Source: Promethearchaeota archaeon (GTDB taxonomy: Archaea; Asgardarchaeota; Thorarchaeia; Thorarchaeales; Thorarchaeaceae). From it: a stretch of 32,000 nucleotides of DNA. A program made the translations under genes and the position numbers. Location: positions 8,191-40,190 of the forward strand of contig JALVPN010000077.1 of assembly GCA_027031765.1 (NCBI GenBank), given 5' to 3'. Positions 4,457-18,552 of this stretch are shown here, one piece after another (the first letter of the stretch is position 1; every line of letters starts with the position of its first letter). The notes below the pieces were generated by a model. It made no database searches, was not told where the DNA came from, and saw only the letters and a list, made by a program, of their open reading frames with translations.

Positions 4457-5122
4457 GTGATAGCCCTTCGACTGAAGGCACCAGAGAAAATCCTTGAGGC
4501 GCTGGAGGGACACGAGAAGATAGTGCTCTTTGGGGACTCCGGGTGTGCCCAGCTGTGTGATGTGGGCGGACTGCTCCAGCTCGAGGACATGGAGGACTTC
4601 CTGACAAGGAACGGGAAGACCGTCCTCGGTGCTGTGTTCGTCGAGGGTGGCATCTGCAATGGCCCTGTCTTCAGGAGTACGGTGCAGGAGCAACGGGCAG
4701 TGATAGACAGCGCCGACGCACTGCTGGTACAGGCCTGTGGTGTCGCAGTACAGACCATTGTAGAACACATCCCGGAGAAGGAGGCCTTCCCTGCGGCTGA
4801 CTCGATGTTCCTCGGGGTTTCAAGGGGGCGTGGGACACACTCCGAGCTCTGCGCGATGTGCGGGGACTGCATCCTCCACCTGACCGGCGGGATATGCCCA
4901 CTGGCCCGCTGTGCGAAGGGGATACTCAACGGCCCCTGCGGTGGCTCCATGAACGGCAAGTGCGAGAGGGATGAGGACACTGACTGCGCATGGCAGCTCA
5001 TCTACGACAGGCTGCGGGCACTGGGAAAGCTCGACAACATCCGGAAGGTGTGGGAGATGAAGGACTGGAGGAGCTCACATGGGCCGCGGGTCATCTCGCA
5101 CCATGGAGGCGCAATAGCCTAA
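4457..5122 (+). CDS. metV: MetV-type Fe-S/Zn partner of methylenetetrahydrofolate reductase (MTHFR C-terminal-like domain)
   Basis: Cys pattern CAMCGDC..TGGICP..RCAK..LNGPCGG..GKCE...DCAW; GGAGGT ribosome-binding site before GTG; immediately upstream of metF. Confidence 0.85.
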   Translation: MIALRLKAPEKILEALEGHEKIVLFGDSGCAQLCDVGGLLQLEDMEDFLTRNGKTVLGAVFVEGGICNGPVFRSTVQEQRAVIDSADALLVQACGVAVQTIVEHIPEKEAFPAADSMFLGVSRGRGTHSELCAMCGDCILHLTGGICPLARCAKGILNGPCGGSMNGKCERDEDTDCAWQLIYDRLRALGKLDNIRKVWEMKDWRSSHGPRVISHHGGAIA

Positions 5123-5170
5123 AGATAATAAGGGGTCTCAGCCGGTCGAGTCCAGAAACACGAGGAGAGG

Positions 5171-6103
5171 ATAACACTCGGTAGCGGAACACGGCTGCAA
5201 CAGTCACTGGAAAGAGAAGGCCTGACCATCACCGGGGAAATCGTACCCCCCCGCGGTGCCAGCCCGAAGGCCCTGCTTGAGAAGGCACGGGCGGTCGCTG
5301 CGGACTGTGTCGCCATCAACATCACGGACAACATACGCGGGAACCCAGCAATGAGCAGCATTGCAGCCAGCCACCTGATATGTGACGTGGGTGCCGAACC
5401 AATACTCCAACTGTCGACACGCGACAGGAACCGCATACTGCTTGAGAGCGAGCTGTATGGCGCCCATGCGCTTGGCATCAGGAACGTCCTCTTTGTGACT
5501 GGCGACCACACGCTGCTCGGCACCCATCCGCATGCAAAGATGGTCTATGACCTCGACTCGATACAGGCCCTCCAGCTGGCCTCGGAGCTCATGCATGGCA
5601 GGGACCTGGCGGGAAAGGAGCTCGATGGTACACCGTCGTTCTATCTGGGCTCCACCTTCAACCCGTACGCAGACCCCATGGAGCTCCATGCCTGGCGGGT
5701 CGAGAAGAAGCGGGATGCCGGGGCACAGTTCTTCCAGACGCAGGCAGTATACGATGTCGGGCGGTTCAGAGACTTCATGGCACAGATACGGGGCCTCGGA
5801 GTGTACGTGCTCGCCGGGATATACGTCCTGAGAGGGCCGAAGACCGCGAGGTTCATGGACGAGCGCGTGCCGGGGATATACATCCCAGAGGAGATAATTG
5901 AACGGCTCGAGAAGGCTGGGGAGGGCCTGAGTGGCAAGGAGGCCCGGGCCCGCAGACGGGAGGAGGGCATAGCGATAGCCCTTGAGACCACAAGGGAGGT
6001 GATGAGGGTGCCGGGGGTGCACGGTATTGACCTGATGGGGACGGGCTGGGAGCCACACATCACACGCTTCATCGAATCTGCAAGCGGACAGCAGGAGGGA
6101 TAG
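5171..6103 (+). CDS. metF: Methylenetetrahydrofolate reductase, MetVF type; probable non-canonical (ATA) start
   Basis: Motifs TGDH..GTHP.AK.V.DLDS, EKK..AGAQFFQTQ.VYD. The conserved N-terminal GEIVPPRG and AINITDN lie upstream of the first ATG (5351), so the true start is further 5'. Start coordinate uncertain. Confidence 0.85.
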   Translation: MTLGSGTRLQQSLEREGLTITGEIVPPRGASPKALLEKARAVAADCVAINITDNIRGNPAMSSIAASHLICDVGAEPILQLSTRDRNRILLESELYGAHALGIRNVLFVTGDHTLLGTHPHAKMVYDLDSIQALQLASELMHGRDLAGKELDGTPSFYLGSTFNPYADPMELHAWRVEKKRDAGAQFFQTQAVYDVGRFRDFMAQIRGLGVYVLAGIYVLRGPKTARFMDERVPGIYIPEEIIERLEKAGEGLSGKEARARRREEGIAIALETTREVMRVPGVHGIDLMGTGWEPHITRFIESASGQQEG

Positions 6104-6107
6104 GAGG

Positions 6108-7025
6108 TTGTTCGTGTTCAAGAAGGAGCAACAGGTAATAGAGATTGGAGGCGTGAGCGTAGGCGGGCAGCCCGGGGAGCACCCCACCGTACTGATAGGT
6201 GGCATGTTCTTCAAGGGCCAGCCCATCGTCAAGAACACAAAGCAGGGGATATTCGACGAGGAGATGGCCCGTGAGTGGGTCGACCTTGCCAACGACATGG
6301 TGATCCGCACAGGACACCCGCTCATCATACAGGTGTACGGCCGCACCGAGACCGCCATGGAGCGTCACATAGGCTGGCTCGCAGAGAACTTCGACGGGCC
6401 CTTCATGTTCGAGTCGACGAACGCAAAGGCGCGGGTGAGAGGGATTGAGTACTGCAACGAGACCGGCCTCCATGACAGGGCAATCTACAACTCGGTCAAC
6501 CTGTCGATGAAGGACGATGAGAAACAGGTCCTGTCCAACAGCCGCATTGACTCCGCAGTTGTCCTTGGCTGGTCGCCACGCGCCACGAGCCTTGAGGAAC
6601 GGATGGAAACAGTAGGGGCAATGATTACGGAGGCCCGTGAGATGGGGCTCCAGCGGCTGCTCGTGGACCCTGCAACTCTGCCCGTGGGCGCAGGGTACGG
6701 ACTCGAACTGCGCACTATGATTGCGATAAAGTCACAGCACGGTCTGCCGACCTGTCTGGGCCCCCACAATGCGCCCTCGGCGTGGCAGTTCATCAAGCAG
6801 CCCGGCCTTGACGACGAGCCGGCACACCTCTCGGCAGTGGTCGCGGCAACGGTGGCGGCTCAGCTGTTCGCCACAGATGCGGTCATGTATGGCTCGATGG
6901 CACGGACGAGGGAGGCCTTCATTGCGGTTGCCCTGATAGGGAATGCACTCGCAGCCACTGCGGCCGAGGCATCCCATGCACTCGGGGTGGACAGGCAGCT
7001 CTTTGAACCGCCCACATCGTTCTGA
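6108..7025 (+). CDS. mtrH: MtrH-family pterin methyltransferase, divergent paralog 1
   Basis: MFVFKKEQQVIEIGGV..GGQPGEHPTVL, AIYNSVN, GPHNAPSAW; TTG start. Confidence 0.85.
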   Translation: MFVFKKEQQVIEIGGVSVGGQPGEHPTVLIGGMFFKGQPIVKNTKQGIFDEEMAREWVDLANDMVIRTGHPLIIQVYGRTETAMERHIGWLAENFDGPFMFESTNAKARVRGIEYCNETGLHDRAIYNSVNLSMKDDEKQVLSNSRIDSAVVLGWSPRATSLEERMETVGAMITEAREMGLQRLLVDPATLPVGAGYGLELRTMIAIKSQHGLPTCLGPHNAPSAWQFIKQPGLDDEPAHLSAVVAATVAAQLFATDAVMYGSMARTREAFIAVALIGNALAATAAEASHALGVDRQLFEPPTSF

Positions 7026-7048: not shown

Positions 7049-7741
7049 GTGGGGCAGAGTGCTGACAGGCAGTGGCCGCCGGTGCCAGGCGACTTCATTG
7101 TGGGCGACCCGGGACACCCGGTGGCCATATGCACGCTCGGTAAGAAGATTGATGTTGACTGTGAGTACGCCATAATCGGGACGTGCAAGACCGAGAACAT
7201 AGGGATAGAGAGGGTCATTGTGAACATAGTCTCGAACCCAAGGGTCAGGTACCTGATACTCGCAGGCCCAGAGGTGCCGGGTCACAGGACGGGACAGTCC
7301 CTCAAGAGCCTGTATGAGAACGGGGTCGATAGCAAGACCCGGCGGATTGTGGGTGCGGAGGGGGCGATACCGTTCATTGAGAACGTGCCCCTTGAGGCGG
7401 TCGAGCGGTTCCGTCAGCAGGTACAGCTCGTCAACATGCTGAACATCACCGACCCGTCGAGGATTGCGGACACCGCTGCAGAGCTCGCACGCAAAGACCC
7501 CGGCGAGTTCCCGGACGGACCCATGTGGGTGGACTTTGGCACGCACCAGGGTGCCACCCGCGTCCTCACTCCGGGCGGTGCGGTTGCCATTGTCCCGGAG
7601 CTCGGTATTGCGCTCGACCCGTGGACGTCGCTGGTGTCATCACGGGACGCCATGGTGATAGTCTCAGTGCACCCATCAACCGTGGTCGCAGAGTTGCAGG
7701 AACAGGACGGTGGACACGTGATTGTTGTGAGGGAGGTATGA
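7049..7741 (+). CDS. mtrA: MtrA-family corrinoid protein, soluble, with an MtrB-like C-terminal extension
   Basis: CKTENIGIERVIVNIVSNP..RYLIL.G.EVPGH.TGQ...NG....I.GA.GAIPFIEN, with the Co-ligand His in the GH motif retained. No hydrophobic membrane anchor seen. Confidence 0.9.
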   Translation: MGQSADRQWPPVPGDFIVGDPGHPVAICTLGKKIDVDCEYAIIGTCKTENIGIERVIVNIVSNPRVRYLILAGPEVPGHRTGQSLKSLYENGVDSKTRRIVGAEGAIPFIENVPLEAVERFRQQVQLVNMLNITDPSRIADTAAELARKDPGEFPDGPMWVDFGTHQGATRVLTPGGAVAIVPELGIALDPWTSLVSSRDAMVIVSVHPSTVVAELQEQDGGHVIVVREV

Positions 7742-7747
7742 CAGACA

Positions 7748-8683
7748 GTGTTCGTGTTCGAACGTGAGCAGCAGATCTTTGACATCGGTGGTGTCACGGT
7801 CGGTGGCACTCCGGGAGAGAACCCGACCGTCCTTGCCGGGACGATATTCTACTCCGGTGACAAGACCGTCCGCGACGCCCGTACGGGCGAGTTCGATGCG
7901 GCGGAGGCGGAGAGGCTGGTCACGACACAGGACGAGCTGTCAGACATGACGGGCAACCCGGCCCTCGTCCAGGTGTTTGCACAGTCGCCGCGTGCTGTGG
8001 AGAGGTACATCGACTTTGTGAGCGAGGTCACTGATGCGCCGTTCCTGATAGACTCCACAGACCCTGAGACACGGGTCGCGGGGCTCCGTCATGCGGAGGA
8101 GGTGGGGCTGCTCGACAGGGCGGTGTACAACTCCGTCAACATCTCAATGACCGAGGACGAACGGATGGCCCTCTCCGAGATGGGACAGCTGTGTGCGATA
8201 GTCCTTGCTTTCAACCCCCATGACGCGACGATTGCAGGGCGCAGGGCCGTCCTCGAGTCAGGGACGCCGGAGATGGGAGAGGGGCTGCTTGAGACCTGTG
8301 AGAAGGTGGGCATCAACAGGCCACTCATAGACACAGCAATGACCTCCCTCGGGGCCGGGGCGGGGCCCGCCGTGGCATTCACCCTCGTTGCAAAGAGCCT
8401 CTATGGCTATCCCACCGGGTGCGGTATACACAATGCCGTGTCGTCGTGGCCATGGCTGCTGGGACTGAAGCGACACGACAAAGAGGCATACCGCACCTGT
8501 GATGTCGCGTCCAACGTCATCGTACAGCTGATGGGCGGTGACTTTGTCCTCTACGGGCCCATAAAGAATGCCAGGCTCGTGTTCCCTGTGGCTGCAATGG
8601 CAGACGCGCTCGCGGCCGAGTGCGTGAGCATGGAGCTCGGTGTCAGTCCGGCCGATGGGCACCCGTTCAGGCGGCTGGTATAG
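7748..8683 (+). CDS. mtrH: MtrH-family pterin methyltransferase, canonical-like paralog 2
   Basis: GGTPGENPTVLAGTIFY, PFLIDST, RAVYNSVN, GCGIHNAVSSW, GDFVLYGPI.NA. Confidence 0.92.
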   Translation: MFVFEREQQIFDIGGVTVGGTPGENPTVLAGTIFYSGDKTVRDARTGEFDAAEAERLVTTQDELSDMTGNPALVQVFAQSPRAVERYIDFVSEVTDAPFLIDSTDPETRVAGLRHAEEVGLLDRAVYNSVNISMTEDERMALSEMGQLCAIVLAFNPHDATIAGRRAVLESGTPEMGEGLLETCEKVGINRPLIDTAMTSLGAGAGPAVAFTLVAKSLYGYPTGCGIHNAVSSWPWLLGLKRHDKEAYRTCDVASNVIVQLMGGDFVLYGPIKNARLVFPVAAMADALAAECVSMELGVSPADGHPFRRLV

Positions 8684-8698
8684 GACGGGTGTAGCAGT

Positions 8699-10108
8699 AT
8701 GCCCACAAGGCCCACATTTGTGCGCCCGCCACGCATGGGCACGCTGTCACTCAGGAAGGGGCCGTTCTATACGGTGGCCTCTGTAGAACTCGGTAATACC
8801 ACCACCAAGTGTGTGGTAGTGACGACCGACCTCAGGACAGCGCGCATGTACATGCTGGGAAAGCTCGTGCGTCTGACGCGTGAGGCAAGACCACCGCGGG
8901 AGGGGGAGCTGGTCTTTGGGAGGACGCTCACTGGCACACCGCTCACACGGGAGTCCGTGGCAGAGCTGGTCGCCGAGACCCTCACGGGAGCTGTAAGGCA
9001 GGTGAGGCTGGACATTGAGCGCGACCTCCACTTCGTCGTCCGGTCCACGGGCGTGACCGCAGGGTTCGCCACACCGTCAGAGGTCGGCGAGATGGTCAGG
9101 GCCCTTGCCCAGGGCTGTCTGCAGGCCGGGATCCCGCCACGGAAGATGACAGCATCAATCTCACTCGACAGGGTCCCACCAGGGCTCCGGCGCTACAGCC
9201 TCCTTGACAGGGTCTACTTTGATGGGGCGGTGGCCGGGACGCGTCCCCCGGCGGCAACGGAAATCGTAGCAAATGAAATGGAGGGGGAGCTGGTCACTGC
9301 CGGACTGAAGGGTGCCGCAAAGAACACGCAGGTCGACTTCAGGAACCCTGTCATGACCCTGGACTTCGGCACCACACTGGCCGGACGCGTGACTGACGAG
9401 TCGTACCCCTATGCAGATACCATTGGCTCGTTTGCGGGGCTTGGTGGGGCGATACCGGACGCCCTCGTCCGTGGTGCAGGCCTTGCAGACCCGGTCACTG
9501 GTTGCGTCCTTGATGTCGAGGCCCCGAAACGGTACAGCGTGGAGGTGGGCGAGTGGCTCGAAAAAGTGCACTCGCTTGTGGATGTGCGGACAGTCCCAGC
9601 TGGTACCACCAGGTTCGGCACGGTGCCCGTAGACACCAGGGCAGCGGACGAGTCAGGGGTCGTGCTGATAGGCGTCGACGCTGGGAGGAACGGGTCTGCC
9701 CTGTCGGAGCTGGAGAGACTGGGCGCGGAGGTCTACGAGGCGGGCGGACTGGGACTGCTGATGGGCCTTGTCGACCGGGTGCAGGTACAGACAGTGCAGA
9801 GGCTCGTGAGCACCGCGGAGGAGGAGGGCATCGTGCTCCCCCGGACGGCACTTGGCCTGACAGGAAGGGGGATTACGACTGGCACGAAGCCGCGACTGGT
9901 CACAAAGTACCTGACCACTGCGAGCGGCGAGCCCTGGACAGAGTCGCATGTCCTGCTCATGGTAGAGGACGGGCTTGCCCTCGGAGCTGCGGTAGCGGCC
10001 CGCTGCATGAACTCCATGGGGACTCCCAAGCACCCGATAGGTGGCCGTCAGGGTGACGGGTGCGTGCTGGCCGCGCGGCGCGAGGCACAGAAGGGCCGTA
10101 CTGGATGA
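8699..10108 (+). CDS. Methanogenesis marker protein 14-like (DUF2114), predicted ASKHA/actin-like ATPase fold
   Basis: YTVASVELGNTTTKC, VFGRTL.G..LTRESVAELV, FVVRSTGVTAGF, ANEMEGEL.TAG.K, DFRNPV.TLDFGTTLAGR, GLGGAIPDAL. Confidence 0.85.
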   Translation: MPTRPTFVRPPRMGTLSLRKGPFYTVASVELGNTTTKCVVVTTDLRTARMYMLGKLVRLTREARPPREGELVFGRTLTGTPLTRESVAELVAETLTGAVRQVRLDIERDLHFVVRSTGVTAGFATPSEVGEMVRALAQGCLQAGIPPRKMTASISLDRVPPGLRRYSLLDRVYFDGAVAGTRPPAATEIVANEMEGELVTAGLKGAAKNTQVDFRNPVMTLDFGTTLAGRVTDESYPYADTIGSFAGLGGAIPDALVRGAGLADPVTGCVLDVEAPKRYSVEVGEWLEKVHSLVDVRTVPAGTTRFGTVPVDTRAADESGVVLIGVDAGRNGSALSELERLGAEVYEAGGLGLLMGLVDRVQVQTVQRLVSTAEEEGIVLPRTALGLTGRGITTGTKPRLVTKYLTTASGEPWTESHVLLMVEDGLALGAAVAARCMNSMGTPKHPIGGRQGDGCVLAARREAQKGRTG

Positions 10109-10174: not shown

Positions 10175-10948
10175 GTGCTTGTCATCCCCATCAGGACCAG
10201 GGTCATCAGACCCGACGACAACATAGTGGATGTGATACTCGACGGCCTTGCCAGGGCTTGCCACGAGCTCCGTGAAGGGGACATCCTAGGGATTGCTGAA
10301 ACACCACTGGGGACGACGGAGGGGCGGGTGATTCGCCTGTCAGACGTAGTTGTGAGTGACAGGGCACGAGACCTTGCACAACGCTACGACATGGTACCGG
10401 AGGTCGCGCAGCTCGTACTGGACGAGGCCGACGAGGTCCTCGGAGGTATCCCACACGTGCTCCTCACAATCAAGAACAACACACTGATGGCCAATGCCGG
10501 GGTCGACAAGTCGAATGTGCCACCGGGCTACGCATCACTGTTGCCCGAAGACCCGGCAGCCAGTGCAGCACGGATACGGGAGGAGGTGGCCAGGCGCCTC
10601 GGCATAGGAGTGGGCGTAATCGTGATAGACAGCCGTACGCAGCCGCTGCGGCTAGGCAACGTAGGGATGGCCCTTGCTGTGGCGGGGTTCCGGCCCGTGG
10701 TCGACGAGCGTGGCAGGACAGACCTCTTCGGGAACGTCCTGCGCGTGACGCGACGTGCTGTTGCTGACAACCTGGCCTCTGCGTGCACTGCGGTGATGGG
10801 TGAGGCCGACGAGGCAGTCCCAGCGGCACTGATAAGGGATGCGCCCGTCGAGTACACGGACACTGTCCACGACTCGTCAGAGATGTGGATTTCACCCGAG
10901 GAGTGCATGTACATGGCAATCTTTGAGCAGTGGAGACGCGGGATGTGA
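10175..10948 (+). CDS. cofE: Coenzyme F420-0:L-glutamate ligase
   Basis: IPIRTRVIRPDDNIV, ANAGVDKSN, DS..QPLRLG.VG.A, D.RG..DLFG..L.VT, ADNLASA...VMGEA.E..P. Confidence 0.88.
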   Translation: MLVIPIRTRVIRPDDNIVDVILDGLARACHELREGDILGIAETPLGTTEGRVIRLSDVVVSDRARDLAQRYDMVPEVAQLVLDEADEVLGGIPHVLLTIKNNTLMANAGVDKSNVPPGYASLLPEDPAASAARIREEVARRLGIGVGVIVIDSRTQPLRLGNVGMALAVAGFRPVVDERGRTDLFGNVLRVTRRAVADNLASACTAVMGEADEAVPAALIRDAPVEYTDTVHDSSEMWISPEECMYMAIFEQWRRGM

Positions 10949-11063: not shown

Positions 11064-12404
11064 GTGGGAAGACCAATAGTCCTCTTTGATGTCGCGTCGG
11101 CAGGTGCATCCGGGGACATGTTCCTGTCAGCACTGATAGACCTGATTGGGGACGACGAGGCCATACTCCGAGTCGCAGCAAGCATGCTGATCTACGACCC
11201 GACGCTACGGGTAAACGTCACACCTGTCACAGTGGGGGACACTGAGGGCAAGAGGCTCGATATCACCCTAGACACAGGGGTCAGGTTCGAGCCGCAAGCA
11301 ATGCATGAGGTGCTCAAAGAGGTCGCAACCGAGCTTGAGCTCTCAGAACACGGCCTCGAGACCGCAGAGCGGATGCTGGACATACTGTTCACCGCCGAGA
11401 GCAAGGCACATGACACGCCGGTGGATGAGCTGCACCTCCACGAGGTCGGCTCCATAGACACGGTTCTTGACGTCGTTGGGGTAGTGTACCTCCTTGAGAA
11501 GGCTGGTCTCCTCGGTGCAAAGTTCATCTCCACTCATGTGGCAATTGGCCAGGGCAGCATCGAGACCGAACACGGCGCGTTCGAGGTGCCAGTGCCAGCC
11601 GTTGCGGAAATCCTTGTTGCACATGACATCCCATTCCACAGGAGCACAGCCCAGACCGAGACCCTGACCCCGACAGGGGCCGCTATACTGGCGGCGCTTG
11701 CGGAGGACTACGTCGACTCGACTGAGGGCATCGAGTTGGAACGTTCCGGGGTGGGTTTCGGAACTCGCGACCTGGGCGAAACGCCGAACGCGATGCACAT
11801 ACACATCTGTCGCGGGACGGCACCAGCACGAGAGGCCGCCGAGATGACACGGGAAGCAGAGGCGGAAGGAGCAAAAGAGGCCGCGGCACCAGTTGAGGCC
11901 CCAGAGGCCGACCGGAGGCTTGAGACGTTGACGGGTTGGGACACTGACGAAGTGGTAGTCCTCGAAACGAACGTTGACGATGTCGATGGCGAGACCATGG
12001 GTACGCTCTTCGACGCACTGCTGGACACACATGGTGTGTTTGATGTGGTGGCAATCCCGGCATATGGGAAGAAGAACCGTCCGTGCCTGGTCGTAAAGGT
12101 GATTGCTTCGGCTCGGGCCCTCGCGGAGGTCCCCGACATCCTAGTGAAACACCTGGGGACAATTGGGGTGCGGTATACCACGTGGCGCCGCGTGAAAGCG
12201 ACCCGCGAAACCGTCGTCTGCAGGATTGATGTGGAGGGCAAGGAGTACATGGTGCGGGTGAAGGTCTCACGGAGTGCGGACGGCAGTGTGGTGAATGTCA
12301 AGCCAGAGGCCGATGATGTGAGAAAGGTCGCACGTGAGACCGGCATCCCGACGCGGTTCCTGCGGCCAATGATCATACTACAGGCGAAGGCGGTCACCGA
12401 GTAG
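11064..12404 (+). CDS. larC: LarC-family nickel insertase (fused N- and C-terminal halves)
   Basis: GASGDMFLSAL, HLHEVGSIDTVLDVVG, ETLTPTGAAIL, LETNVDDVDGE, KKNRP, TIGVR, VKPE.DD. Confidence 0.9.
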   Translation: MGRPIVLFDVASAGASGDMFLSALIDLIGDDEAILRVAASMLIYDPTLRVNVTPVTVGDTEGKRLDITLDTGVRFEPQAMHEVLKEVATELELSEHGLETAERMLDILFTAESKAHDTPVDELHLHEVGSIDTVLDVVGVVYLLEKAGLLGAKFISTHVAIGQGSIETEHGAFEVPVPAVAEILVAHDIPFHRSTAQTETLTPTGAAILAALAEDYVDSTEGIELERSGVGFGTRDLGETPNAMHIHICRGTAPAREAAEMTREAEAEGAKEAAAPVEAPEADRRLETLTGWDTDEVVVLETNVDDVDGETMGTLFDALLDTHGVFDVVAIPAYGKKNRPCLVVKVIASARALAEVPDILVKHLGTIGVRYTTWRRVKATRETVVCRIDVEGKEYMVRVKVSRSADGSVVNVKPEADDVRKVARETGIPTRFLRPMIILQAKAVTE

Positions 12405-15208: not shown

Positions 15209-15278
15209 CGGCCATATGTTACAGGCACACAGTCCCACTCATACGAATACGAGTCTGGCCGTCCAAAGATTCAGTGGG

Positions 15279-15854
15279 GTGCTCAAAATAGTAACTGCGC
15301 TGTTCAAAGTAATCCTCATGGGTGATGGCTCCGTCGGAAAGACAAGCCTGCGACGGGTGTACATGGGCGAGGGGTTCAAGGCATCGTACATGATCACAAT
15401 AGGGGCCGACTTTGCCGTCAAGAAGATGACCCTAGAAGGAGGCCACGATGTCAGCATTCAGATCTGGGACCTGGCAGGCCAAGAACACTTCAAGAGCGTC
15501 CGCTCCACGTTCTACCGTGGTGCCCAGGGTGCACTCGCAGTGTACTCCACAGTGGAACGGAGCTCCTTCGAGAACATTGAGAACTGGGTGGAAGAGTGCT
15601 GGAGCAACGCAGGCAAGAAGATTCCAGTCGTGTTGATTGGGAACAAGATTGACCTCCGGGAACAGTTCATAGACAACCCCGTAATGCGCCAGACCATTGT
15701 CACTACTGAGGAGGGACAGGCCCTAGCCGACAGAATTGCCCAGCGGGGCGTCCACGCGTCCTTCATAGAGACCTCTGCCAAGACCGGGAAGAACGTCGAG
15801 GCTGCATTCCTCGAACTGATAATCAGGATCTTGGAGGCCGGCGGGCTCTCATAG
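15279..15854 (+). CDS. Rab-like small GTPase 1
   Basis: G1 GDGSVGKTS, switch I TIGADF, G3 WDLAGQE, YRGA, G4 NKID, G5 ETSAKTG; no C-terminal prenylation Cys. Start is GTG 15279 or ATA 15288. Confidence 0.93.
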   Translation: MLKIVTALFKVILMGDGSVGKTSLRRVYMGEGFKASYMITIGADFAVKKMTLEGGHDVSIQIWDLAGQEHFKSVRSTFYRGAQGALAVYSTVERSSFENIENWVEECWSNAGKKIPVVLIGNKIDLREQFIDNPVMRQTIVTTEEGQALADRIAQRGVHASFIETSAKTGKNVEAAFLELIIRILEAGGLS

Positions 15855-17216: not shown

Positions 17217-17421
17217 GTTATGGCACAACACAGCGGTGCAGTGGCACCACACTGTTTTGTCGGCCGGGGGACTGAGGACGTAGAGGGCGCTGTGGAGCAG
17301 CAGCAGTACAAACAACATGAGAGTTGACACCCGGACTGACGACAGTGTTGCAACTAGCAACTTTTTAGGGGAATACCGTCATAGCGAGCTACGACCCCCC
17401 CCCCACCATGAGGCGCATCAT

Positions 17422-18552
17422 ATGAGCGAGCACGAACTCACACTGTTCTTGAGACCAGAGACCATCAAGCCGCCTGCCGAGCACGGCTCCGAGCTCACAC
17501 GGAGGATTGCACTGAACCATGCAGGCCGATTGATTGCTGTGGGAATGCAGGACAAGAGCATCCGGCTATACGATGCAACCAACTTCGAGGAGATCCAGAA
17601 GCTCCAGGACAACTTCCTGAGCACGGCTCTGGCATTCAGTCCACGAGGGGACACTGTGGCATCTGGTGGTGTCGACAGGGTGGTAAAGATATGGGACATA
17701 AGGACGGGCGAGGTGCTCACGACACTGGAAGGGCACACATACCCGATTCTCGGGCTCTCGTTCTCACCTGACGGTAGCAGGCTCCTCTCAGCCAGCGGAG
17801 ACACGACGCTCATAGTCTGGGATCTCAACAGTGGCACCGAGTCCAGCAGGCTCAGGGGCCACAAGTTATACGTCATGTCCTGCGACTGGCATCCAGAGGA
17901 CGACCTCGTCGTGTCGGGGGCTGTCGACGCCACCATTGCACTGTGGGACCCGAACACTGGCAAGATGTTGGGCCAGTACGGCGAACACAGGACCGCGGTC
18001 CATGTGGTCAGGTTCTCCCCACAGGGTGACAGGCTCCTGTCCACATCATCGGACATGACGTGCAAGGTCTGGGACGTGGGCGGGGAGAGCGTCAGGCCCG
18101 TGCACACCCTTCAGGGGCACACAGCAGAGGTGAGGACGGCCACATGGAGCAGTGACGGAGAGCTCATCGCCTCAGGGTCCAGTGAGAAGGAGCTCTTCCT
18201 CTGGTCACTGGACTCACTGCAGGTGGAGGGGGAGGCACGTACAGCTGGGGAGATTGACGGGATAGAGTGGTTCCCTAGCAAGAAGGAGTTCGTCACAGCC
18301 GACAGTTCGGGGGCAATTACCCGCTGGCGCGTACAGGAGCTGTCCATTGTCCTGGCGCCATTCCGCGACCTGCTGGCAGAAATCCAGGCAGACAGCACAG
18401 GGGCGCACCGTGAGGAGCACATCCGCCAGTTTGACGACCTCGTGCAGCGCTACGGTGAGGAGACCCTGAAGGACAAGAGGGTGTTCTATCTGATGTGGCA
18501 GTGCAAGCGTGCACTGGGGCTCCTCAAGGGCAGACCAGCCGGTACACGGTGA
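17422..18552 (+). CDS. WD40 beta-propeller protein (about 7 blades) with a short helical C-terminal domain
   Basis: Repeated GH...FSPxG..L.S.S.D..V.IWD units (VVKIWD, LIVWD, IALWD, CKVWD, LFLWS, ITRWR); GAGGCG ribosome-binding site 6 nt before ATG 17422. Confidence 0.92.
   Translation: MSEHELTLFLRPETIKPPAEHGSELTRRIALNHAGRLIAVGMQDKSIRLYDATNFEEIQKLQDNFLSTALAFSPRGDTVASGGVDRVVKIWDIRTGEVLTTLEGHTYPILGLSFSPDGSRLLSASGDTTLIVWDLNSGTESSRLRGHKLYVMSCDWHPEDDLVVSGAVDATIALWDPNTGKMLGQYGEHRTAVHVVRFSPQGDRLLSTSSDMTCKVWDVGGESVRPVHTLQGHTAEVRTATWSSDGELIASGSSEKELFLWSLDSLQVEGEARTAGEIDGIEWFPSKKEFVTADSSGAITRWRVQELSIVLAPFRDLLAEIQADSTGAHREEHIRQFDDLVQRYGEETLKDKRVFYLMWQCKRALGLLKGRPAGTR

Follow-up and report, generated by a model that had tools for sequence, protein, structure and literature searches.

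Methyl transfer by Mtr is the sole energy-conserving step of hydrogenotrophic methanogenesis, and it depends on a cobamide that is inactive once oxidised. Kengen et al. reportedly observed an ATP-dependent activation of the methyl-tetrahydromethanopterin (methyl-H4MPT):coenzyme M methyltransferase in cell extract, which we do not use as evidence. In structural papers from 2024-2026, the Mtr cofactor was observed as Co(II) or Co(III) and the activator was stated to be uncharacterised ("as-yet uncharacterised" in a paper of 2025), and a recent report describes an [Fe8S9C] cluster in MtrCDE. For almost twenty years, methanogenesis marker protein 14 (marker 14, DUF2114) has counted among the conserved "methanogenesis markers" to which no function is assigned. 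According to Borrel et al. (2014; PMC4153887), arCOG04866, the marker 14 family, neighbours the mtr operon in several orders and does not occur in the Methanomassiliicoccales, which lack Mtr, and Adam et al. (2022; PMC9635834) listed it as m26_DUF2114 (MMP1223). Neither study gave a fold or a mechanism, and our literature search retrieved no paper proposing either. Here, we analyse a 32,000-nucleotide stretch of a Thorarchaeial genome (positions 8191-40190 of contig JALVPN010000077.1, hereafter the window) in which a marker 14 gene follows genes for a soluble MtrA and two MtrH proteins. We find that marker 14 is tied to MtrA rather than to Mcr, and propose that it may be the ATP-dependent activator of the MtrA cobamide.

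The source genome (2.95 Mb in 229 contigs, 95.3% complete) encodes one MtrA, two MtrH, and one marker 14, all inside a single cluster. The marker 14 protein scores 589.5 bits against TIGR03285 (methan_mark_14; cut-off 274), covering profile positions 1-445 of 446, and 598 bits against PF09887 (DUF2114), and is thus a full-length member of the family to which an earlier note on this DNA, made from the letters alone, had assigned it. Its closest homologues are Thorarchaeota proteins (57-66% identity), while methanogen homologues share 47-55%. No match to McrA was found anywhere in the genome. Given this absence and the Thorarchaeotal homologues, the view of the earlier note that the organism is a probable non-methanogen holds. 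With 133 representatives at 50% identity in a set of 1.84 billion proteins, this is a small family; domain fusions or long forms were not found in it, its longer members carrying no extra Pfam domains.

In order to place marker 14 relative to Mtr and Mcr, we profiled Asgard, Halobacteriota, and Methanobacteriota genomes. Among 301 Asgard genomes, marker 14 was present in 73 of the 76 belonging to the family of the window and in one other, and was not found in the remaining ~223. MtrA was detected at 170-205 bits in 71 of the 76 family genomes and adjoins marker 14 where both share a contig. In 22 Asgard genomes of other families, the MtrA-like domains are all diverged and score lower (84-162 bits); most are fused, lying in frames of ~500 residues, and none of these genomes carries marker 14 (0/22). 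Across 251 Halobacteriota genomes (at least 85% complete; MtrA called by TIGR01111 at E <=1e-30), which are related to one another so that the counts are descriptive and not a statistical test, marker 14 was found in 156 and MtrA in 155. Both were present in 152 genomes and neither in 92, leaving seven discordant cases: four with marker 14 only (two of them partial genes) and three with only a weak MtrA-like hit. All 15 Halobacteriota genomes with MtrA but without McrA encode marker 14. Conversely, marker 14 is missing from nine genomes with McrA or AcrA, of which six lack MtrA and three have only weak MtrA-like hits. In Methanobacteriota, 143 of 151 genomes at least 90% complete carry marker 14. 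Its co-occurrence with canonical mtrA is seen in three phyla, and the conclusion that marker 14 tracks canonical MtrA, and not Mcr, is solid. The earlier note had read the gene context as pointing to Mtr rather than Mcr and had suggested phylogenetic profiling as a check; the profiles agree with that reading, which had already been published (PMC4153887, PMC9635834).

The one Asgard genome outside the family of the window that has marker 14 (G009; C91:8955-10268) encodes its MtrA on another contig (C86:1976-2458). With 221 bits in a 269-residue frame, this is the highest-scoring MtrA of the Asgard sample, and the genome could represent either a real Mtr-bearing lineage or a binning artefact.

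The order hflX-(metV)-metF-mtrH1-mtrA-mtrH2-marker 14-cofE-larC is kept in all 27 Thorarchaeial loci as far as the contigs reach, and in six loci of Methanobacteriota mtrA..mtrH is followed 0.4-3.5 kb downstream by marker 14. Marker 14 and MtrA, but not McrA, are encoded in eight Halobacteriota genomes with sizes of 0.9-1.6 Mb. In two of these (L086, G377:C1:430000-449900; L087, G311:C1:338000-357900), genes for soluble MtrA and MtrH precede marker 14. The order in L086 is soluble MtrA (216 residues), MtrH, an open reading frame (ORF) of 345 residues, marker 14, a core methionine synthase (NF002119, 327 bits), ThyA, and Mch, which suggests an anabolic route from methyl-H4MPT via a corrinoid to methionine. 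The marker 14 proteins of this lineage are closest to proteins labelled as Methanocellales metagenome-assembled genomes. Marker 14 persists wherever the soluble MtrA/MtrH core persists, without MtrB-G and without Mcr. As both Thorarchaeia and this second Mcr-free lineage keep marker 14 with the soluble core, a role in the membrane part of Mtr, including the [Fe8S9C] cluster of MtrCDE, is excluded.

The 345-residue ORF between mtrH and marker 14 in L086 has only a weak match to a pyrophosphatase (E 5.8e-4). A DHH-type phosphoesterase was considered as a partner of marker 14 and dropped, since ORFs with DHH_CID/DHHA1 domains upstream of a diverged marker 14 (L091) show no BLASTP homology to this 345-residue ORF.

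A search of the PDB with the marker 14 sequence gave no match below E 0.15. An AlphaFold2 model built from a 32-sequence alignment (predicted local distance difference test, pLDDT, 93.9; predicted TM-score 0.93) has the ASKHA architecture, in which a nucleotide cleft is flanked by two RNase-H-like domains of the order beta-beta-beta-alpha-beta-alpha-beta-alpha. In a Foldseek search of the PDB, all matches were ASKHA proteins, including the putative kinase MK0840 (E 4e-7), Qri7/TsaD, and glycerol kinases; RACo (3zyy) ranked 12th (E 4.9e-6), and the RACo-CoFeSP complex (4c1n) and HgdC (1hux) were also returned, all at low TM-scores (0.3-0.4). A second, Foldseek-independent search gave 146 chains with Z of at least 8, and all 50 listed entries are ASKHA proteins. 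The highest score (Z 17.7; root-mean-square deviation 3.4 over 250 aligned residues) belongs to the ATPase subunit of 3-methylbenzoyl-CoA reductase (9gai_C), followed among others by CoaX (17.6), AnmK and FtsA (17.2), Kae1 (16.4), the HadI activator (4eht; 15.7), and EutJ (15.3). DdrA stands at rank 37 (Z 13.2), beneath kinases and FtsA, and PilM, ParM, MreB, and actin are also among the matches. A search of the Atlas yielded, besides the marker 14 family (TM 0.84), only a glycerol kinase (TM 0.53). By these model comparisons the ASKHA fold is certain, with no single ASKHA subfamily standing out.

Consistent with the fold, the nucleotide motifs are intact. We aligned 246 canonical homologues (120 Thorarchaeial, 126 others), in which 82 columns are at least 98% identical. 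The two stretches that the earlier note had taken for actin/ASKHA-type phosphate motifs, VELGNTTTK (residues 29-37) and LDFGTTLAG (residues 221-229), are borne out. In the first, E30, G32, and N33 are identical in all 246 sequences, T35 in 244, and K37 in 245, the acidic residue being Glu instead of Asp; in the second, G224 and G229 are identical in 246, D222 and T226 in 245, and T225 in 242. In the adenosine-type motif, G386, G389, and R390 are identical in 246/246. ExGNxTxK (30-37), DxGTT (222-226), and GxTGR (386-390) all fall on the expected hairpins of the model. Besides three invariant cysteines (Cys140, Cys436, and Cys455), a fourth position, C38, is frequently Cys (206/246) and otherwise often Ser (35/246).

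The fold matches to FtsA, PilM, ParM, MreB, and actin raise the option that marker 14 has a structural or regulatory role, for instance by gating the encounter of MtrH with MtrA or by forming an actin-like scaffold. Alternatively, it might be a functionless leftover in Thorarchaeia, where Adam et al. (2022; PMC9635834) call the genes 'remnants'. Taken together, we regard these options as very improbable. Motifs of catalytic type are invariant throughout the alignment, and evidence for polymerisation was not found. A leftover, in turn, is hard to reconcile with retention in 73 of 76 family genomes, with the 82 nearly identical columns, and with the identities to Thorarchaeotal and methanogen homologues given above.

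The best-fitting reading, to which we assign a probability of slightly below 0.4, is that marker 14 acts as an ATP-dependent reductive activator of the MtrA cobamide. It would be a stand-alone ATP-binding protein of the ASKHA fold that serves the corrinoid methyltransferase core of MtrA and MtrH, and neither Mcr nor the membrane subunits MtrB-G. We infer that marker 14 hydrolyses ATP, binds MtrA, and takes part in redox chemistry: it would recognise MtrA with its cobamide lapsed into the inactive Co(II) state, and ATP binding and hydrolysis would make the one-electron reduction from Co(II) to Co(I) possible. Either the three invariant cysteines would pass on the electron, as a metal or iron-sulfur (Fe-S) site or as a pair of redox-active thiols, or a separate ferredoxin or thioredoxin would supply it.

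Several observations are in line with such an activator. The client to which the distribution points is a cobamide carrier that becomes inactive once oxidised, and the ATP-dependent factors servicing B12 proteins that appeared in our analysis (RACo, DdrA) are all ASKHA proteins. Furthermore, a RACo-family gene is present in only 46 of the 151 Methanobacteriota genomes, and 99 of the 143 that bear marker 14 have no RACo/RamA-family gene; nor was one found in M. jannaschii, among the control genomes. In 18 related Methanolobus-type loci (L035:9515-9988 and 17 similar ones), the gene immediately preceding marker 14 in the same orientation encodes a thioredoxin, a hint of a redox role. Finally, co-folding of marker 14 with MtrA, which the earlier note had proposed as a check, lends weak support to a contact: the median ipSAE was 0.38 (runs 0.53, 0.38, and 0.36) against 0.00 for the best control, the runs sharing at least 19% of contacts with a partner pLDDT of at least 69. 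In the calibration, 58 of 80 solved complexes passed the mark, as did 2 of 110 mismatched pairs.

Against the proposed activator stand, to begin with, the limits of these comparisons. The co-fold result is a weak kind of pass, as passes at ipSAE <=0.60 comprise 7 of the 80 solved complexes and both passing mismatches. The fold alone does not indicate corrinoid chemistry, with CoaX, AnmK, FtsA, and Kae1 tying with activator ATPases in the model-based searches. No ferredoxin or other Fe-S domain was detected in marker 14 by Pfam search, and profile comparison of the family by hhalign gave probabilities of 1.6% with the RACo-like protein of the same genome and of 0.24% with E. coli EutA. In Methanosarcinaceae, no mtr gene lies within 10 kb of marker 14. 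Moreover, Adam et al. (2022; PMC9635834) reported that diverged DUF2114 copies occur in Persephonarchaea, for which a loss of Mtr has been stated.

A further point in this direction is the presence of RACo-family genes in the source genome and in 58/58 related Thorarchaeial genomes. The only such gene of the source genome (L093:2086-3402, contig C22) encodes 438 residues with the middle and ASKHA domains and without the Fe-S N-domain, and it lies on another contig among unrelated genes, with no corrinoid gene adjoining. The corrinoid iron-sulfur protein CFeSP was rejected as its client because no match to CdhD was found. As the genome shows neither CFeSP nor an obvious MtaC-type carrier, the RACo-like protein might itself serve MtrA. 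Related genomes carry a RACo form of ~540-580 residues, one of ~420-450 residues, or both. In three of five relatives checked, the long form is encoded 0.5-3.2 kb from an MtaC-type B12-binding gene and therefore probably has clients of its own.

The missing Fe-S domain would suit a different mode of action, namely a non-redox chaperone that uses ATP to open MtrA for insertion, release, or exchange of the cobamide, as DdrAB/PduGH and EutA do for adenosylcobalamin enzymes, with no electron transfer involved. The operon position and the co-occurrence with MtrA speak for such a chaperone as much as for an activator, DdrA is among the structural matches, and the named clusters closest to marker 14 in language-model features all belong to EutA. 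At 0.83, however, this similarity is under the 0.9 level at which we count it, and neither the profile comparison nor the Atlas fold search, which returned no EutA-like model, supports the EutA lead. In a single Methanothermobacter locus (L045:11365-12000), the gene overlapping the end of marker 14 encodes a CobY-like nucleotidyltransferase (TIGR00454, 245 bits). Such enzymes function in the assembly of the cobamide nucleotide loop, which would fit a role in cofactor exchange, but the adjacency was seen in only one of the loci examined. A DdrB-like partner was not seen, and the three invariant cysteines and the neighbouring thioredoxin gene hint at redox chemistry. Overall, we consider a chaperone unlikely. 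The suggestion of the earlier note, that ATP drives reactivation of the MtrA cobamide or exchange of this cofactor, is upheld in part. Three of the checks named in the note leave it standing: the tie to Mtr, the ASKHA fold with its intact nucleotide motifs, and the weakly supportive co-fold with MtrA. The lack of a sequence relation to RACo or EutA, the rank of DdrA below generic ASKHA proteins, the missing Fe-S domain, and the RACo-family gene elsewhere in the genome do not favour it, and the mechanism itself is an inference.

Another function altogether is suggested by a diverged DUF2114 subgroup of ~390 residues (17-23% identity over the multiple alignment, 26-30% over matched stretches), which weighs against the activator as well. 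In 3/3 loci for which DNA was available, these genes divergently adjoin one or two core-MetE-like genes. Another distant DUF2114 member follows a diverged MtrH-like gene. Core MetE enzymes, according to what Schröder and Thauer are said to have shown in 1999, take the methyl group from a methyl-corrinoid. If core MetE uses methyl-corrinoid, the MetE-linked context of DUF2114 would still be one of corrinoid-dependent methyl transfer. The link nevertheless keeps open a possible enzymatic role that does not centre on MtrA: marker 14 could be an ASKHA enzyme such as a kinase, with a small molecule or a protein side chain as its substrate, which would be needed for methyl transfer from methyl-pterin via corrinoid to thiols, including homocysteine by way of core MetE; it would then not service the cobalt centre. 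Most ASKHA relatives in the fold searches are indeed kinases (CoaX, AnmK, glycerol and sugar kinases, MK0840), and core-MetE genes, besides flanking the diverged subgroup, follow canonical marker 14 in the ~1-Mb Halobacteriota lineage. Furthermore, the H4MPT-biosynthesis gene MptA/FolE2 occurs near marker 14 in 15 Methanosarcina-type loci, and one of the diverged loci (L090) also has an MptE-like gene. On the other hand, the distribution of marker 14 is far narrower than that of H4MPT or cobamide use, given its absence from ~223 Asgard and 92 MtrA-less Halobacteriota genomes, and no substrate can be named. In addition, the source genome keeps marker 14 without any Meth_synt_2 gene, for which reason methionine synthase was also rejected as methyl acceptor in this organism. 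Such an enzyme therefore appears improbable to us.

The features of the cluster are listed in Table 1. The genes from metF to marker 14 follow one another on the same strand with gaps of 4-23 nucleotides. Among them, mtrH2 ends with TAG at 8681-8683 and marker 14 begins with ATG at 8699, so that the spacer of 15 nucleotides given in the earlier note is correct. The cluster is flanked by the metV-like gene and hflX on the upstream side and by the cofE-like and larC-like genes downstream; the metV-like gene is present upstream in only part of the Thorarchaeial loci.

Table 1 Features of the marker 14 gene cluster (window positions) and of diverged DUF2114 loci in other genomes (locus positions)
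Feature	Position	Strand	Evidence or remark
metV-like gene (DUF5981, C-terminal domain associated with methylene-tetrahydrofolate reductase)	4457..5122	+	PF12225, 119.8 bits
metF-like methylene-pterin reductase	5192..6103	+	PF02219 MTHFR profile positions 1-271, aligned from residue 21 onward in the frame that opens at 5132
Diverged mtrH-like methyltransferase (MtrH1)	6108..7025	+	PF02007 250 bits; TIGR01114 249 bits, under cut-off 271
Soluble MtrA cobamide carrier, 230 residues, without C-terminal membrane helix	7049..7741	+	PF04208 191 bits; sole MtrA of the genome
Canonical-type mtrH (MtrH2)	7748..8683	+	TIGR01114 376.5 bits, over cut-off 271
Marker 14 (DUF2114), ASKHA-fold ATP-binding protein (predicted), 469 residues	8699..10108	+	TIGR03285 589.5 bits; single copy in genome
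Phosphate-1 motif VELGNTTTK, residues 29-37, first beta-hairpin	8783..8809	+	Strands 23-31 and 35-44 in model
Codon of invariant Cys140	9116..9118	+	Cys in 243/246
Phosphate-2 motif LDFGTTLAG, residues 221-229	9359..9385	+	Strands 218-223 and 226-232 in model
Adenosine-type motif G386-x-T-G389-R390	9854..9868	+	After strand 384-388 in model
Codon of invariant Cys436	10004..10006	+	Cys in 246/246
Codon of invariant Cys455	10061..10063	+	Cys in 244/246
cofE-like gamma-glutamyl ligase, conserved downstream neighbour in Thorarchaeia	10175..10948	+	PF01996 233.8 bits; TIGR01916 196 bits
larC-like nickel-insertion protein, conserved downstream neighbour in Thorarchaeia	11064..12404	+	PF01969 310.9 bits
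Diverged DUF2114 loci with core-MetE neighbours	L088:2551-4836; L089:3-2929; L090:1708-4976		

The soluble Thorarchaeial MtrA (7049-7741) carries the sequence KDPGE in place of the KDPGA motif of methanogen MtrA, which the archaeal ligase Connectase recognises. In the metF-like frame, no ATG, GTG, or TTG occurs before the ATG at 5351 (canonical-start ORF 5351-6103), although homology to MTHFR begins at ~5192; about 50 homologous codons (window 5126-5351) thus precede the first canonical start. The likely cause is either a non-canonical start (CTG 5194 or ATA 5171) or an assembly error. The window also encodes a Ras-family small GTPase (15216-15854) and a WD40 beta-propeller protein (17317-18552). 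Ras-family GTPases and WD40 propellers are typical 'eukaryotic signature' genes of Asgard archaea, and both fit an Asgard genome.

With respect to the two published surveys (PMC4153887, PMC9635834), the family, the Thorarchaeial MtrAH context, and the conclusion that marker 14 goes with Mtr and not with Mcr are the same here. Beyond these, the present analysis adds the ASKHA model, the invariant motifs and cysteines, the counts against Mcr and RACo, the second Mcr-free lineage, and the MetE-linked diverged subgroup. If marker 14 is indeed the Mtr activase, an orphan marker would gain a function and an open step of methanogen biochemistry would gain a gene. It would also explain how many hydrogenotrophic methanogens without RACo or RamA keep Mtr at Co(I), and would provide a possible target for methane mitigation. 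If it is not, it is an ordinary member of a known family whose context has already been published. The soluble Thorarchaeial set of MtrA, MtrH, and marker 14 would be a convenient membrane-free test system.

To further illuminate the proposed role, we compared marker 14 with the known ATPases that service corrinoid or low-potential enzymes. With the RACE proteins (RACo, 3zyy and 4c1n; RamA), marker 14 has the ASKHA ATPase fold in common (predicted in its case), in both cases the gene neighbours or accompanies that of a corrinoid methyl carrier, and the proposed job is the same. By sequence, however, it does not belong to this group (COG3894), as PF14574 and PF17651 are not matched. A [2Fe-2S] or [4Fe-4S] domain was not detected in marker 14, which has the three invariant cysteines and one frequent cysteine, and it goes with the MtrA fold of corrinoid protein and not with the MtaC/CFeSP type. 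DdrA/PduG (2d0o) and EutA are likewise ASKHA-type ATPases that service a B12 enzyme, as is proposed for marker 14, and E. coli EutA, with 467 residues, has about its length. EutA structures were found neither in the PDB fold searches nor in that of the Atlas, and marker 14 matches neither PF08841 (DDR) nor PF06277 (EutA), placing it outside these families. DdrA and EutA exchange a damaged cofactor in radical enzymes, whereas MtrA carries a methyl group and alternates between Co(I) and CH3-Co(III).

The best structural scores, level with those of CoaX, AnmK, and FtsA, belong to the activators of the HgdC/HadI/BcrAD type (1hux, 4eht, 9gai; Z 17.7 and 15.7 for 9gai and 4eht). These couple ATP to low-potential electron transfer, and their phosphate-1 motif ends in Lys, similar in form to that of marker 14, although marker 14 has no match to PF01869. 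In the HgdC type, a [4Fe-4S] cluster bridges two subunits via a conserved Cys pair. Judged by its profile matches, marker 14 is thus a member of neither the RACE, the Ddr/EutA, nor the HgdC families, and if it works like any of these, it would be new by sequence among them. With considerable doubt, we propose that marker 14 may constitute one more ASKHA lineage among the corrinoid activators, the third and without sequence relation to the others, that acts specifically on the MtrA fold and draws its electron via the three-cysteine site or from thioredoxin or ferredoxin. Together, the fold, the conserved motifs, and the tie to MtrA make marker 14 a reasonable candidate for the factor that keeps the cobalt cofactor of MtrA active.

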